Counted from the first letter of the stretch, positions 2,551-17,975 are shown. The stretch: 64,000 nucleotides of DNA from Minisyncoccia bacterium (GCA_041485695.1 JBGPJZ010000001.1:129316-193315); one strand, 5' to 3'. Numbers and translations: made by a program. Notes: generated by a model from the sequence alone, not told the origin.

Positions 2551-3360
2551 CTACCGGATAAAAAAGAAGAAGAAGACCACAGCCAAGAGGATGCGGTAGA
2601 TGCCGAAGTTCGTGAGCGCACGATTTTCATTAATATAGCGGAGTAAGAAGCGCATTGCGAATATCGCGATGATGAAAGCCGTGATAAAGCCGATGGCGAG
2701 AAGCCCGAACTCCGTGCCCGTTATCTGCGAACTCGTTTTAAGGAGGTCGTAGCCCGATGCTGCGAGCAAGGTCGGCACCGCAAGCAAGAACGAGAATTTG
2801 ACGATGGTCTGTCGTGGCACCCCGAGGTAGAGGCCGCCGAGAATCGTAGCAGCGCTCCGCGAGATGCCCGGGACAAGGGCGAGCGCCTGCATAAGGCCGA
2901 TGAGAGCCGCCTGAAAGTAGGAAATGTCATCAACTGGCTCCTCGGGAGCCGGTGCGAAATCGAGCACCTCGAAAAGGATAAGGAAGAGACCGCCTAGGAA
3001 AAGCGCAACGAGTACCACCCAGACGTTGCCGATGAGGTAAGCCTTCACGAAGTGGTAGAGCGTAAGCCCGATGATGCCGGTGGGGATAAAGGCCACGGCA
3101 AGCTTTTTCAACAATACCCAGTCGAAGAAGGAGCGAAAGTAAAGCGCAACCACAGCCGAGATGGAGCCCAATTGGATGACGATCTCGAATGTCTTTATGA
3201 AGTCAGTCTGCGTGATGTTAAGCAAGGAGCTCGCAAGGATAAGGTGCCCGGTCGAAGAGATGGGCAAGAATTCGGTCGCGCCCTCGACGATGCCGAGGAT
3301 AATCGCGTCAAACGGGGTCATGCGGACAGCGTAGCACAAGCCGATTAGACCTATTGACAA
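2551..3360 (-). CDS. uppP: undecaprenyl-diphosphate phosphatase
   Basis: 269-aa polytopic membrane protein; GATEFLPISSTGHL motif characteristic of UppP/BacA. Confidence 0.9.
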   Translation of the reverse strand: MSIGLIGLCYAVRMTPFDAIILGIVEGATEFLPISSTGHLILASSLLNITQTDFIKTFEIVIQLGSISAVVALYFRSFFDWVLLKKLAVAFIPTGIIGLTLYHFVKAYLIGNVWVVLVALFLGGLFLILFEVLDFAPAPEEPVDDISYFQAALIGLMQALALVPGISRSAATILGGLYLGVPRQTIVKFSFLLAVPTLLAASGYDLLKTSSQITGTEFGLLAIGFITAFIIAIFAMRFLLRYINENRALTNFGIYRILLAVVFFFFFIR

Positions 3361-3382
3361 AGAAATGTCAATGTGTTAGTAT
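3354..3382 (+). promoter_or_regulatory. sigma70-like promoter (TTGACA-17-TAGTAT) upstream of the 3D-domain gene
   Basis: ttgacaaagaaatgtcaatgtgttagtat; 17-nt spacer. Confidence 0.4.
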
Positions 3383-3442
3383 GTGAATTAACGAGGTATT
3401 TACTGGCTGTTTTAAAGAGCTGGTAGATGCCCGTTTTCATTA

Positions 3443-3988
3443 ATGTCTACATTCATATTAGGCGGCCTCATGGCTTTTTTCATCTTGACCGGCTCGGCCG
3501 GCCACGCCTCTGCACCCGAATTCCCGACCTACACCACGTCGGTGACGGGCTATAACGCCGTAGCCGCCCAGACTGACGGCGATCCTTCGACGACTGCGAG
3601 CGGCGCTCTCTCCAACACGGCTGTCGTCGCTGCGCGTTCGCGCGACCTCGCCGATGAGCTCCCCTTCGGTACGGTCATCGCAATCGAGCCCTCGACCGAG
3701 CGCTCCGATACCTGCGGCCTCGATTTTGTCGGCCCCAAGGTCGGCTACCGCGTCATCGCCGACACCATGAATGCCCGTATCACGAACACGGTTGACGTGC
3801 TTTTCGCCACCGATAACACGTTCACGGTGGGTGGCAAAGCGGTCAACGCCGCTCGCGCCTTGGGCTCCTGTAAAGACGTGACGATTCGCGTCGTGGGCCA
3901 CATCGACATCTCGAAGCCCTCGAACCTCCCGAAATCGCAGACGGCGCTCGCCGCCATGGTCGGCGCCTCGGGCCTTGCAGTTAAATAA
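3443..3988 (+). CDS. secreted 3D-domain protein (MltA/YabE-type cell-wall-associated domain)
   Basis: Signal-peptide-like N-terminus; TGYN..QTDGDPSTTASG motif of the 3D domain. Confidence 0.55.
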   Translation: MSTFILGGLMAFFILTGSAGHASAPEFPTYTTSVTGYNAVAAQTDGDPSTTASGALSNTAVVAARSRDLADELPFGTVIAIEPSTERSDTCGLDFVGPKVGYRVIADTMNARITNTVDVLFATDNTFTVGGKAVNAARALGSCKDVTIRVVGHIDISKPSNLPKSQTALAAMVGASGLAVK

Positions 3989-9900: not shown

Positions 9901-11822
9901 GTTAGTTGTTCTTTCGGCACTACGTACTCGATATCGTCATCAAACGAACGAATGATGATGCCAAGAGCAACACCAATGAGCCCCACGATCGCGAGCCACC
10001 ACAGTTGCCAGATCATCCCGAAACCAAAGAGGAAGCTCGCGCCGGCTATGATAAGACCCATGGCGGTATTTTTCGGCATCACGATGTCTTCGACCTCATG
10101 CGCCGCTGTGTGGGGAGCCTGTTTTTGCATCCAAAAAGCGTCCCGCCCGTGTACCTGCGGTATAGTCCTGAAGTTGTAAAAAGGCACGGGGGTCGCGGTC
10201 GACCACTCAAGCGTGCGGCCGCCCCAGGGGTCGCCACCCGCAACGTGCTTTTTCCTCTGCCAGACGCTCACGATAATCTGTAGCGCTTGCAAGCATACGG
10301 CGAGCGCAATGATGCAGGCGCCAACTGCAGCGACGACCAAGAGAGAGTGCCACCCGCTCGCGATGTCGACATAGTCAAGACGCCTCGTCATGCCCATAAG
10401 GCCGAGCGCATAGAGCGGGATAAATGCCGTCACGAACCCGACGATCCAGCACCAAAACGCGTAGGCGCCGATTTTCTCGTTTAGCGTGAAGCCCATGAAC
10501 TTGGGGAACCAGTAGGTAAGCCCGGCAAAAAAGCCGAAGAGGACGCCGCCGATAATCATATTGTGAAAGTGTGCGACCAAAAACAGGCTGTTATGGAGCT
10601 GGAAGTCTACGCCAGGCACTGACATGAGGACTCCCGTCATGCCGCCGATGGTGAACGTGACTAAAAACCCCATGAACCACAGCATCGGGGTTGCAAAGAT
10701 GATGCGCCCGCGAAACATGGTGAAGAGCCAATTGAATATCTTGACGCCAGTGGGGATGGATATGAGCATCGTCATGATGCCGAAAAAGGCGTTGACGTCC
10801 GCCCCCGCGCCCATGGTAAAGAAGTGGTGCAGCCACACGACGAATGAAAGAAGGACGATGAGCATGGTCGCCACGACCATGGAGGTGTAGCCGAACAATC
10901 TCTTTTGCGCGAACACCGGTACGATTTCAGAAAAGACGCCGAACGCGGGCAAGATAAGGATGTACACCTCGGGGTGGCCCCATGCCCAGATAAGGTTGAC
11001 ATAAAGCATTGCGCTGCCGCCGAGGTCGGTAGTGAAAAAGTGCATGTCGAGGAGGCGGTCCAAGGAGAGCATTGCGAGGGTAGCCGTGAGGATGGGGAAG
11101 GCAAAGATAACGAGGAGCATAGAGCCGAGCGCGGTCCAGACGAAAATCGGCATGCGCATCAAGGTCATGCCGGGCGCCCGCATCTTGATGATTGTCGCAA
11201 TAAAATTAACGCCCGAGAGCAAGGTGCCGACCCCCGCTATTTGCAGCGCCCAGATGTAGTAATCGACTCCCACTCCGGGACTGTATGCGAGCTCGGAGAG
11301 GGGAGGGTAGGCGAGCCAGCCGGTCGCTGCGAATTCGCCGAGGACCAGCGAGAGGTTCACGAGAGTAGCCCCGGCAATCGTAAGCCAAAAACTTAGCGAG
11401 TTGAGAAAGGGGTAGGCCACATCCCTGGCTCCGATCTGGAGCGGGACGACGAGGTTCACGAGGCCGAACATAAAGGGCATCGCCACGAAAAAGATCATAA
11501 TCACACCATGGGCGCTAAAGATCTGCGCGAAATGGTCTGGCGTCAAGAAGCCGACCTGGTCTCCGACCGCAAGCGCTTGCTGGCCGCGCATCATCAAGGC
11601 GTCGATGCCTCCGCGCAGAAGCATGACAAACGAGAGGATGATGTACATCGCTCCGATCTTCTTGTGGTCTACCGAGGTAAGCCACTCGCTCCAAAGCCAC
11701 TTCCAGCGTTTAAAGTAAAAGAGCAAACCGACGGCGGCGAGGCCTCCCATGACGACGCTTAATTGACCGAAGGTTTCGATCGGCCCGTGTATAAGCGCGT
11801 CCAGTGTTAGTTTTCCAAACAT
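9897..11822 (-). CDS. cyoB: heme-copper oxidase subunit I (cytochrome bo3 quinol oxidase subunit I)
   Basis: 641 aa; [17 protein letters not shown] and HH..MIIGG ligand motifs of subunit I. Confidence 0.95.
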
Positions 11823-12813: not shown

Positions 12814-13287
12814 ATGGATCAACCGATGGGTGAGCAGATTAGGAGAGATGCGATTGCGTTTTTACAAAAGAATACCGCAGGAGCGCTCGCCACCGTCGGG
12901 AGCGACGGGAGCCCGCACGTACGGCTGGTGTATTACTCGTGCAATGACTCGTTCGAGATTTATTTCATGACCAAGCGGGATAGCCGCAAGGTCGAGGATA
13001 TCGCCGGTAACCCGCGGGCGGCCTTCACGATCTCTTCGCAAGAGGTGCCGCAGACGCTCCAGATAGAAGGCACGGCCTCTCTTGTAGACATACCTGCGGA
13101 GCCCGATGCCGTCTTAAACGCGCTCTTCGAACGCCTCGCTTCGAACAAGCACTTTACCGCGCCCATCACCAAGATGGGCGACAGCGAGCTTCTCCTGTAC
13201 AAGATAGCTCCCCTGTGGATACGCTGGGGCGACTTCGCCTTTGCGCAAAAAGGCCCGACCGGCATCTTTATCGAGATTGCCGGATAG
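12814..13287 (+). CDS. pyridoxamine 5'-phosphate oxidase-like FMN-binding protein (general stress protein 26 family)
   Basis: 157 aa; GALATVGSDGSPHVRLVYY split-barrel PNPOx signature; GGGAGG RBS. Confidence 0.7.
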   Translation: MDQPMGEQIRRDAIAFLQKNTAGALATVGSDGSPHVRLVYYSCNDSFEIYFMTKRDSRKVEDIAGNPRAAFTISSQEVPQTLQIEGTASLVDIPAEPDAVLNALFERLASNKHFTAPITKMGDSELLLYKIAPLWIRWGDFAFAQKGPTGIFIEIAG

Positions 13288-17100: not shown

Positions 17101-17176
17101 TGAGCTTAATGACTCGGTACTGCTTTCTTATATATCACGATACAGTATAACTGTCAAATCTAGCTCCGCGGGTAAG
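17101..17176 (-). repeat. promoter/leader cassette copy B; begins with a 14-nt near-exact copy of the tRNA 3' end (gctccgcgggta[a/g]g)
   Basis: 17163..17176 gctccgcgggtaag versus tRNA 3' end 17246..17259 gctccgcgggtagg (13/14). Remainder ~75% identical to copy A. Confidence 0.55.
17129..17157 (-). promoter_or_regulatory. sigma70-like promoter TTGACA-17-TATATA (copy B)
   Basis: Minus strand: ttgacagttatactgtatcgtgatatata. Confidence 0.5.
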
Positions 17177-17202: not shown

Positions 17203-17236
17203 AAAAACAAAAAGCCCTTTCAAGGCTTTTTGTTTT
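17203..17236. terminator. bidirectional rho-independent terminator (downstream of the intron-containing tRNA)
   Basis: aaaaagcc-ctttcaa-ggcttttt flanked by A/T runs on both sides. Confidence 0.6.
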
Positions 17237-17244
17237 ACTCACTC

Positions 17245-17539
17245 GGCTCCGCGGGTAGGAGTCGAACCTACAACCAACTCCTTACATCGATCCTTACGTT
17301 TCCGAAAGGGATGGACTATATCATCACCGGATCTCGGTGCGAGGAGCTTCCAATCTCGACAGTACGTCGGAACTGTACTCCCGTTAGGGATAGTCTCTGA
17401 ACCTTTCCTGTTTTTACAGGACTTGGCTGCTGATTACCCGACAAGGGCTTCCAGCAATTCACCTCGTTATTCGACTCGGATTCCTCCGAGAAGCTGCGTT
17501 AAGCCACAGGGAGCTGCTCTACCATTGAGCTACCGCGGA
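17245..17539 (-). tRNA. tRNA gene interrupted by a group I intron; mature tRNA most parsimoniously tRNA-Asn(GUU)
   Basis: Hand-folded. 5' exon 17506..17539 gives acceptor stem, D-arm GCUC-AAUGGUA-GAGC, anticodon stem GCUCC and loop start CUGU. 3' exon 17245..17284 gives UAA, GGAGU, variable UGGUU, T-arm GUAGG-UUCGACU-CCUAC, acceptor CCGCGGA, discriminator G and CC. Joined anticodon loop is CU-GUU-AA. 5' exon ends in U that can pair with G of the intron GCAG (P1); intron ends in omega-G. Confidence 0.75.
17285..17505 (-). mobile_element. group I self-splicing intron (~221 nt, no internal ORF) in the tRNA anticodon loop
   Basis: Contains recognisable group I core elements: P (GAAUUGCUGGAAG), Q (AAUCAGCAGC), R (GGUUCAGAGACUA) and S (AUGAUAUAGUCC), with P7 GACUA/UAGUC pairing and terminal G. 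Confidence 0.75.
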
Positions 17540-17617
17540 ATGTCTCGAACGTATCGATTATACACATAGCTTTCTTATTGAAACAAGTGCATTAACACAC
17601 AGTGTTATGCTGTATGT

Positions 17618-17971
17618 ATGATGCGATCATGTAAGAGGCATGGGGTCACGAAATATTTCATGCGCACCGAAGGGTGGTATCGATGCGGGAAATGCGCGTC
17701 GGAAGCTGTCATTGAAAATCGGCGGCGGAAAAAGACAAAACTTGTGGAGAAGTTCGGTGGCAAGTGTACTATATGCGGATACAATAAATACGTTGGAGCT
17801 CTTGATTTTCATCACACGAGTCCTAAGACAAAGAAGTTTGCTCTAAGTGTTAAAGGACTGTCGTATTCATGGAGCTCAATTCTCGAGGAAGCAAAAAAAG
17901 TGCACATTAGTATGCAAGAATTGTCATGCCGAGATTGAAGCGGGTATTACTAATCTCTCCGTCAAAAATTA
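17618..17971 (+). pseudogene. free-standing HNH homing-endonuclease-like gene, interrupted by a frameshift in an A7 run (17893..17899)
   Basis: Frame 1 (17618..17938) encodes the zinc-ribbon plus CTICGY...ALDFHHTSP HNH core and then stops. Removing one A joins ...CTLVCKNCHAEIEAGITNLSVKN (the N..LC..CH HNH tail) ending at the TAA at 17969..17971. GC ~45%, clearly below the window average. Confidence 0.6.
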
Positions 17972-17975
17972 AAAT

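Follow-up and report, generated by a model that had tools for sequence, protein, structure and literature searches.

Does a small, apparently broken reading frame that stands beside an intron-bearing tRNA gene encode the endonuclease by which that intron spreads? The question arises at one locus in a 64,000 nucleotide (nt) stretch of DNA from a Minisyncoccia bacterium (GCA_041485695.1 JBGPJZ010000001.1:129316-193315; hereafter the window, with positions counted from its first letter), where a gene resembling HNH endonuclease genes lies next to the sole tRNA-Asn(GUU) gene. This tRNA gene is interrupted by a group I intron without an open reading frame (ORF) of its own. Judging from comparison with related sequences, the locus is probably a free-standing HNH homing-endonuclease gene of a tRNA-linked family, paired with the ORF-less tRNA-Asn intron in the manner of collaborative (trans) homing. 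Feature positions are collected in Table 1; related loci carry numbers with the prefix L.

Starting with ATGATG on the plus strand, an ORF of 106 amino acids (aa; 17618..17938) runs to ...EEAKKVHISMQELSCRD, in another rendering ...SSILEEAKKVHISMQELSCRD, followed by its stop codon. The +1 frame reads ...KKCTLVCKNCHAEIEAGITNLSVKN, with the conserved tail CTLVCKNCHAEIEAG and then a TAA at 17970..17972. When one base of the A7 run is deleted, a 117-aa protein is regained, and the joined frames match the family consensus EAKKC[VI]LVCKNCHxEIEAG from end to end in the family alignment. In intact relatives, the run reads GCAAAAAAGTG (L014) or GCAAAAAAATG (L016, L019, L023, L040, L046). The sister genome GCA_030651385.1 (L198) holds an intact 117-aa ortholog (MDO8623999.1, 88% identity) in the same synteny and reads GCAGAAAAATGT where the window reads GCAAAAAAAGTGC, i.e., the window has exactly one surplus base. 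The truncated product of the window (P0001) falls in one 90%-identity cluster together with this intact protein. Common to both genomes is the gene order intron-bearing tRNA-Asn, HNH, glyoxalase, fmt, def, a 91-aa ORF and EPSP synthase; both tRNA-Asn exons are 100% identical between them, and the spacer between tRNA and HNH gene is 83% identical. Family alignment and syntenic ortholog thus confirm, at the sequence level, that the two frames are one ancestral gene split by a frameshift at the A-run. This had been proposed in the initial annotation, which was made from the window sequence alone. Its limits for the ORF and for the A7 run (17893..17899) hold, but the stop codon of the second frame, which it placed at 17969..17971, is the TAA given above.

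The gene is present as a single copy in the window, and the catalytic and metal-binding residues of this copy stand in one frame only after removal of one base. C99, C102 and H103 (numbering of the repaired protein) lie in the +1 frame after A7 and are missing from the encoded 106-aa product. With the second CxxC, which binds zinc, and the metal-binding His lost to the frameshift, an inactive protein is expected as the main translation product. Compared with the sister ortholog, the ratio of non-synonymous to synonymous substitution rates (dN/dS) is 0.04 at a dS of 1.65 (0.08 for the neighboring glyoxalase gene), and among the 24 codons past the frameshift there are 2 non-synonymous against 9 synonymous changes (dN/dS 0.03). 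As these downstream codons are constrained, the frame after the A-run was translated for essentially all of the divergence time. Under such strong purifying selection, the frameshift must be very young, artefactual or bypassed. Decay beyond the frameshift is ruled out by the same values; consequently, "decaying", as the gene had been called in the initial annotation, fits no more than a single lesion, and a very young one.

If the surplus A were a homopolymer sequencing or consensus error, the gene would be intact in the organism and encode a functional 117-aa enzyme, which is compatible with homing. We regard such an error as the less likely case, albeit one with some weight. It would explain a single additional base in a homopolymer of a gene which has no other defect, whose 24 codons downstream of the run are under the same constraint as its other codons, and which is intact in the sister genome. 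Further, a second genome, L050 (a metagenome-assembled genome (MAG) with 7x coverage), has independently gained an A at this run (A8, the in-frame length there being A7), which is what a site prone to errors would show. On the other hand, the A7 run is identical in three assemblies made by different pipelines (NCBI MAG, JGI 3300053058 and Logan SRR29604912), although the three may share reads, and the short contigs suggest short reads, in which A7 consensus errors are uncommon.

In a further reading, the frameshift is regulatory: either transcriptional slippage or +1 ribosomal frameshifting yields some full-length enzyme, or the run varies in phase between ON (A6) and OFF (A7) in the population. 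Such regulation appears quite improbable to us, even though +1 ribosomal slippage or loss of one A from the mRNA would produce the consensus ...EEAKKCTLV..., the downstream frame is fully conserved, and window and L050 independently carry a run which is one A too long at the same codons. An A7 run is short for efficient slippage of RNA polymerase, which counts against this explanation, and no stimulatory element was identified. Moreover, the shifted state is not conserved in orthologs: the sister genome and >95% of about 60 window-type genes (those with the N-terminal zinc ribbon described below) are in frame, many of them with the run broken by G or C. Tight down-regulation of free-standing endonucleases is documented (PMC2330249) and would fit a regulatory role. 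A further frameshifted copy, L052, is shifted at a different site. In itself, the frameshift of the window is either a commonplace lesion of very recent date or an error of sequencing.

What the repaired gene encodes was assessed by profile searches and structure prediction. PHROG 2255, an HNH family, matches residues 1-115 of the repaired protein (E=1e-26), a match which spans the break; phrog_3106 (E=9e-23) and PHROG 35854 are further HNH matches, with E-values across the three ranging from 1e-26 to 4e-18. The repaired protein finds 419 Patescibacteria metagenome proteins, almost all 112-120 aa long and 60-79% identical, so that intact HNH ORFs, which the initial annotation had proposed to look for in related genomes, are found both in the sister genome and in a large family. 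Relatives carry the names "HNH endonuclease" or "McrA" at NCBI and JGI. The Pfam profile PF01844, named in the initial annotation as a check, stayed below threshold on the repaired protein (13.8 bits vs. a gathering score of 21.4) but matched 6/19 aligned relatives at E<=0.01 (best 6.9e-5). No meaningful match was obtained when the PDB was searched by sequence with the family profile.

An AlphaFold2 (AF2) model built with the family alignment is confident, with a predicted local distance difference test (pLDDT) value of 92. It comprises a three-stranded N-terminal zinc ribbon (C5, H8, C23, C26; strands within residues 2-23), a helix at 24-45 and a beta-beta-alpha unit at 62-107 (strands 62-66 and 95-99, helix 100-107). 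C50, C53, H65 and H66 are invariant in the family, and C99, C102 and H103 nearly so; jointly, these residues make up the customary constellation of zinc and metal ligands. The best specific structural neighbors of the model are HNH/EndoVII nucleases, namely Cap5, Cas9-HNH, IscB, McrA, T4 endonuclease VII, Gme HNH and ZRANB3, with weak scores, which is no surprise for a motif of 60 residues. With characterized enzymes such as I-HmuI, I-PfoP3I, Gme HNH, T4 endonuclease VII and McrA, the family shares the beta-beta-alpha-metal core, the CxxC...CxxC zinc ligands and the conserved His; unlike them, it has an invariant Lys (K94) at the canonical Asn position, and sequence similarity is marginal. Profile matches and model together support an HNH nuclease with an N-terminal zinc ribbon, in agreement with the initial annotation. 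A role as anti-phage defense nuclease was considered and rejected, as PADLOC matches are only marginal (E of about 0.006, 14 bits) and the neighbors are glyoxalase, fmt and def.

The partner of the HNH gene is the tRNA-Asn(GUU) gene at 17245..17539 on the minus strand. ARAGORN detects it only with introns allowed, while the default run misses the gene. Its splice junctions are ...CCCUGU/GGCUUAACG...CGAUG/UAAGGAG (slashes mark the splice sites), with a U preceding the 5' splice site and a G at the intron end, and in P1 of the intron CUGU pairs with GCAG. Rfam assigns the intron to RF00028 with 77.7 bits (gathering score 50). It is the sole intron in the window, and no ORF of at least 30 aa was found on the intron strand inside its 221 nt. 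The HNH gene is transcribed divergently; its ATG is 78 nt away from the tRNA 5' end, just as initially annotated, and 112 nt from the intron insertion site. The RF00028 match (17292-17569) overruns the true intron (17285-17505) through the 5' exon into the promoter spacer; as it runs past the 5' splice site, Rfam coordinates are unusable as intron boundaries here. Compared with L198, the intron hairpins at 17355-17368 and 17390-17400 show compensatory substitutions (CCTGTTTTTACAGG vs. CTCGCGATTGCGAG), which are consistent with a ribozyme under structural selection.

The main result comes from comparison across the whole family. One genome per GTDB species was scanned, which resulted in 75 loci with a homolog, and the addition of metagenome loci increased this number to 116; all were classified using ARAGORN with introns allowed. 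A tRNA gene adjoins nearly every one of the 75 GTDB loci, and in all cases it is tRNA-Asn(GUU) with the junction ...CUGU/...G/UAA.... Many of these genes are mis-parsed by ARAGORN as Thr(UGU) at 33/34, the same as published (PMC13011429). In total, about 100 of the 116 loci show a link between HNH homolog and tRNA-Asn; the rest are mostly contig ends or distant homologs.

Two types of homologs are distinguished. Window-type genes, which have the zinc ribbon, stand divergently on the 5' side of an intron-containing tRNA-Asn at 47 loci, with a spacing of typically 72-88 nt. At three loci they are divergent and adjoin an intronless tRNA-Asn, at six they lie on the same strand directly upstream of an intron-containing tRNA-Asn, at three on the same strand upstream of an intronless one, and at a single locus on the 3' side of tRNA-Asn. 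The second type lacks the ribbon and is mainly found inside a 460-670 nt long intron at the same 35/36 site (37 loci), besides three loci where it directly precedes a tRNA-Asn whose intron is short and one where it lies upstream of an intronless tRNA-Asn. Group I introns were confirmed by Rfam in a sample of these loci. In a neighbor-joining tree, free-standing and intron-encoded proteins form sister clades, with three free-standing genes (L053, L064, L074) nested inside the intron-encoded clade. The proposal that the endonuclease of this intron is encoded beside it rather than inside it is therefore strongly backed by genomic context, i.e., by the family-wide link to tRNA-Asn and by a sister clade residing inside the same intron at the same site.

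To obtain a sample which does not depend on the HNH gene, metagenome contigs were scanned for the junction between intron and 3' exon, G/TAAGGAG.... Among 83 informative intron-containing tRNA-Asn loci, an endonuclease gene is present inside or beside the intron in 37 (inside in 22, flanking in 15, 13 of them divergent like in the window), and one locus has a long intron without an HNH match. HNH remnants were found at five loci, among them L097, L113, L139 and L184, and frameshifted copies in the window, L050 and L052. The HNH gene is thus frequent but patchy and has degenerate copies, which is the turnover expected of a homing-endonuclease cycle. The contig of L113 carries two intron-containing tRNA-Asn genes in opposite orientation about 1.2 kb apart (11459-11724 on the plus and approx. 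12900-13160 on the minus strand), with the HNH remnant (residues 8-45 only) upstream of one of the two.

Horizontal movement was observed as well. Judged by fmt, def and tRNA exons, L008 and L013, whose tRNA-Asn genes are both intronless, come from hosts close to the clade of the window. Their HNH genes group 100/100 with a clade whose hosts show 34-41% fmt identity. This is one clear, well-supported host/gene incongruence, which would reflect a horizontal replacement. The GC content, in turn, says little about transfer. The region 17618..17971 has 43.2% GC, the whole window 56.0% and the 3-kb flanks 54-57%, so the low value reported in the initial annotation is real; as a sign of foreign origin it is weak. 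In the family, a mean GC of 41% contrasts with 48% in the flanks and tracks host GC (r=0.73, 77 loci). As this deficit of about 7 GC points relative to the flanks recurs in every lineage, low GC is a property of the family, and it was ruled out as proof of recent transfer.

Several observations weigh against a simple homing scenario. At seven loci, the tRNA-Asn next to the HNH gene (frameshifted in L052) has no intron; were the target simply the uninterrupted anticodon loop, these genomes should cut themselves. At one of the intronless loci, L042, the anticodon arm is even identical to that of the intron-containing sister L038. Conversely, 45 of the 83 intron-containing loci lack an HNH gene over a distance of at least 500 nt. 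Around the free-standing gene, pseudo-sites resembling the target, as in the "endonuclease invasion" footprint of Loizos, were not found beyond chance: the best matches average 13.0 mismatches in 28 positions vs. 12.9 in shuffles. Inheritance is largely vertical, with HNH identity correlating with fmt identity (r=0.69). Finally, 51 window-type genes have a median proportion of synonymous differences (pS) of 0.89, i.e., synonymous sites are saturated, at a proportion of non-synonymous differences (pN) of 0.20, and the median dN/dS is 0.08 over the 43 pairs with finite dS. Purifying selection of this strength exceeds what one would expect of a selfish gene that has become fixed, and together with the partial congruence with host markers it points more to a resident host gene than to a selfish element of the classical, short-lived kind.

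The latter point keeps alive the view that the HNH protein was domesticated for a host role at the tRNA-Asn locus, e.g., in intron folding or splicing, repair or regulation, and is no longer a mobile endonuclease. Besides the strong selection over saturated synonymous divergence, position and spacing are kept (at most divergent loci, the gene starts 72-88 nt from the 5' end of the tRNA), GC tracks the host, congruence with fmt is partial, and the gene persists beside intronless tRNA-Asn. In addition, fixed endonucleases sometimes gain maturase roles (PMC3984707). Nevertheless, domestication seems unlikely to us. Frameshifts and remnants occur, 45 of 83 intron-containing loci manage without the gene, at least one clear horizontal replacement took place, and phage relatives reside in tRNA arrays, as known homing endonucleases do. 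LAGLIDADG enzymes can act as maturases, while HNH enzymes are not known to do so, which also counts against such a role. Moreover, no protein is needed for the self-splicing of homologous ORF-less tRNA-Asn introns in vitro (PMC13011429).

For the loci with an HNH gene beside an intronless tRNA-Asn, one further feature was recorded. L008, L010 and L013, whose HNH genes are intact, have a G31-C39 closing pair in the anticodon stem, while C31-G39 is found in those intron-containing relatives that come closest to them in HNH sequence; the G31-C39 pair might be a cleavage-resistant target variant. A general rule according to which intronless loci with HNH have a changed 31-39 pair was rejected. It holds for 5/7 loci and fails for L042 and L068, and L003, L004 and L007 have the variant plus an intron.

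Relatives of the protein were also found in phages. Forty IMG/VR loci (L199-L238) encode relatives with 36-53% identity, and at 35 of these the gene stands in a tRNA array, no more than 150 nt from the next tRNA (median gap 6 nt); the four closest adjoin tRNA-Asn. Cultured phages contribute 397 records with a match. Among them, the HNH gene of Cronobacter phage CR3 (NC_017974.1 145846-146292) starts 17 nt after tRNA-Asn, and that of the crAss-like phage DAC15 (NC_055832.1 3402-3761) lies in the middle of a tRNA array. Each phage subgroup keeps to one tRNA as its neighbor, which is Arg-UCU at 14 loci, Ile-UAU at 6 and otherwise Asn, Asp, Met or Glu. The phage homologs in tRNA arrays suggest a general family of tRNA-gene-associated homing endonucleases. 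Near HNH homologs, ARAGORN reports "introns" of 200-420 nt in phage tRNA-Lys and tRNA-Phe (L214:1150-1523; L216:1021-1524 and 2728-3074; L223:1257-1536), which could be mis-parses or real phage tRNA introns.

Such positions are known for other enzymes. Free-standing homing endonucleases in phage tRNA clusters include F-TflI/II/IV of T5 (HNH) and SegB of T4 (GIY-YIG), and free-standing endonucleases are tightly down-regulated (PMC2330249). They resemble the window gene in being small free-standing endonuclease genes adjoining tRNA genes, and homologs of the window protein (40-50% identity) hold just such tRNA-cluster positions in CR3, in DAC15 and at 35 of the 40 IMG/VR loci. Unlike in the window, no intron is involved in the T5 and T4 systems, and SegB belongs to another nuclease family. 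A close kinship with the HNH genes of the T5 tRNA region was not retained, as only a faint match to hegA was obtained (E=0.006).

An ORF-less intron together with an adjacent endonuclease that targets its insertion site defines collaborative or trans homing, which is known from phages and was proposed as a route by which mobile introns originate (PMC3984707). Examples are the psbA intron of cyanophage S-PM2 with F-CphI, the DNA-polymerase intron of phage PhiI with an HNH enzyme, and the T4 nrdB intron with MobE (Zeng, Bonocora & Shub 2009; Bonocora & Shub 2009; PMC2790892; PMC3984707). Like these pairs, the window combines an ORF-less, self-splicing type of group I intron in a conserved gene with a free-standing endonuclease gene within about 100 nt. 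It matches collaborative homing in adjacency to the interrupted gene and in the ORF-less group I intron, and its family shows signs of mobility in patchy presence, degenerate copies and incongruence between gene and host. The differences are that the pair resides on a Patescibacteria chromosome, that the presumed target is a tRNA gene instead of a protein-coding one, that the window copy is frameshifted, and that the association spans a whole bacterial class under strong purifying selection.

Regarding the intron itself, Nakagawa et al. (2026, mSystems) described 35/36 group I introns of tRNA-Asn and tRNA-Asp in Patescibacteria, which self-splice in vitro (PMC13011429). HNH genes were found in four tRNA-Asn introns >500 bp, endonuclease genes having been sought only inside introns >500 bp; most tRNA introns had no endonuclease gene, hence a "limited autonomous mobility" was concluded (PMC13011429). 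The same paper does not mention flanking endonuclease genes, and the term "free-standing" has zero occurrences in it. In our literature search, no other paper was found linking flanking HNH genes to tRNA-Asn introns. The intron-encoded HNH proteins of that study share tRNA, insertion site and intron class with the window, and the window protein is 50-56% identical to them over the HNH core. The window gene differs from them by its place outside the intron, by its opposite orientation and by an additional N-terminal zinc ribbon of about 28 aa.

Table 1. Positions of the HNH gene and the intron-containing tRNA-Asn gene in the window, and of tRNA-Asn end repeats at related loci.
Feature	Position	Strand	Remarks or basis
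HNH gene, codons 1-94, original frame	17618..17899	+	N-terminal CxxH...CxxC zinc ribbon, long helix, CxxC, HH of HNH core
A7 homopolymer, frameshift site with one surplus base	17893..17899	+	In-frame state GCA AAA AAG TGC or GCA AAA AAA TGC
C-terminal HNH segment, +1 frame, (K)CTLVCKNCHAEIEAGITNLSVKN and TAA 17970..17972	17898..17972	+	Second CxxC and metal-binding His
Out-of-frame tail of truncated product, VHISMQELSCRD, then TGA 17936..17938	17900..17938	+	Without counterpart in the family alignment (row P0001)
Divergent spacer, 78 nt, tRNA 5' end to HNH ATG	17540..17617		Sequence
tRNA-Asn 5' exon, 34 nt, ends ...CCCUGU	17506..17539	-	ARAGORN with introns allowed
Group I intron, 221 nt, ORF-less, between anticodon nucleotides 35 and 36	17285..17505	-	RF00028 and ARAGORN
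tRNA-Asn 3' exon, 40 nt, begins UAAGGAGU, no encoded CCA	17245..17284	-	ARAGORN
tRNA-Asn end repeats	L023:1196-1213, L025:2426-2444, L045:3791-3809, L012:2474-2487
tRNA-Asn end repeats	L032:2468-2482, L038:4245-4262, L072:3624-3642 and 3831-3856

Some features around the tRNA-Asn gene were recorded besides. A TATAAT on the minus strand (17562..17557) is a candidate -10 box of the tRNA promoter; a consensus scan for promoters and terminators found nothing above background in the 78-nt spacer. Just 3' of the tRNA, a symmetrical array of A-run, hairpin and T-run (AAAAAGCC...GGCTTTTT, 17205-17236), missed by the consensus scan, looks like a bidirectional intrinsic terminator. Seventy nt further on, a 12-nt repeat of the 3' strand of the tRNA acceptor, TACCCGCGGAGC, is located at 17163-17174. 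At three loci which share the divergent HNH/tRNA-Asn arrangement of the window, a 21-24 nt long copy of the tRNA-Asn 3' end (T-arm and acceptor strand) directly follows the HNH stop codon on the HNH strand (L017:3349-3370, L041:3344-3364, L050:911-934), and may be the footprint of an earlier order with HNH upstream of tRNA or of a rearrangement; near the window gene, such a second tRNA-Asn fragment is absent. At other loci, the final 14-26 nt of tRNA-Asn recur as direct repeats about 130-380 nt past the tRNA on its downstream side (Table 1); they resemble the att-like duplications which small integrated elements leave behind. At L003, the closest relative in the genome collection (78% identity), the stop-to-stop frame which contains the HNH gene is open for 311 codons (2950-3885) and thus extends far past the 113-residue HNH match (3001-3339); the gene may have fused with the next one downstream, or its stop codon may have been lost.

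One apparent sign of intron polymorphism was discarded. The contig of L002 (Logan SRR29604912) ends, at its position 1, exactly at the 5' splice site. This end is non-diagnostic because many Paceibacteria whose introns differ have this 5' exon in identical form, so that a de Bruijn graph would branch there anyway; most likely, it is a branch caused by community members which share the exon and have different or no introns.

How, then, would the pair work? In the proposed mechanism, the zinc ribbon of the 117-aa enzyme would bind DNA and its CxxC...HH...CxxCH His-Me finger would cut. The predicted nick or cut falls at or near the 35/36 site of a tRNA-Asn allele lacking the intron (or the HNH gene), on incoming or resident homologous DNA. 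Recombinational repair from a donor with both intron and HNH gene would then co-convert intron and endonuclease gene, and the carrier would be immune since the intron splits the target. The copy in the window would have been inactivated by the one-base insertion in the A-run. We infer the cleavage specificity, the homing and the reality of A7 in cells. The more general claim, that the free-standing HNH proteins are active tRNA-gene homing endonucleases which mobilize ORF-less 35/36 introns in trans throughout Patescibacteria, goes further and is a plausible proposal to which we give somewhat less than even chances on the basis of the comparisons above.

The kind of system, a free-standing homing endonuclease with an ORF-less intron, is already known; newly reported is its setting on a bacterial chromosome, at a tRNA gene and across a phylum. 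Its importance rests on the family pattern beside tRNA-Asn rather than on the frameshift. If the enzyme cuts intronless tRNA-Asn genes, this would be the first case of collaborative homing at a tRNA gene of a cellular organism, and the family would provide compact site-specific nucleases (about 113 aa) with a predictable target. Should the general claim hold true, the three coexisting states, in which the tRNA-Asn next to the HNH gene lacks an intron, has one, or has an intron with the HNH gene inside it, would form a living series for the Bonocora-Shub model. It would further account for the prevalence of tRNA-Asn introns in a phylum with minimal genomes and overturn the recent inference that these introns are essentially immobile.

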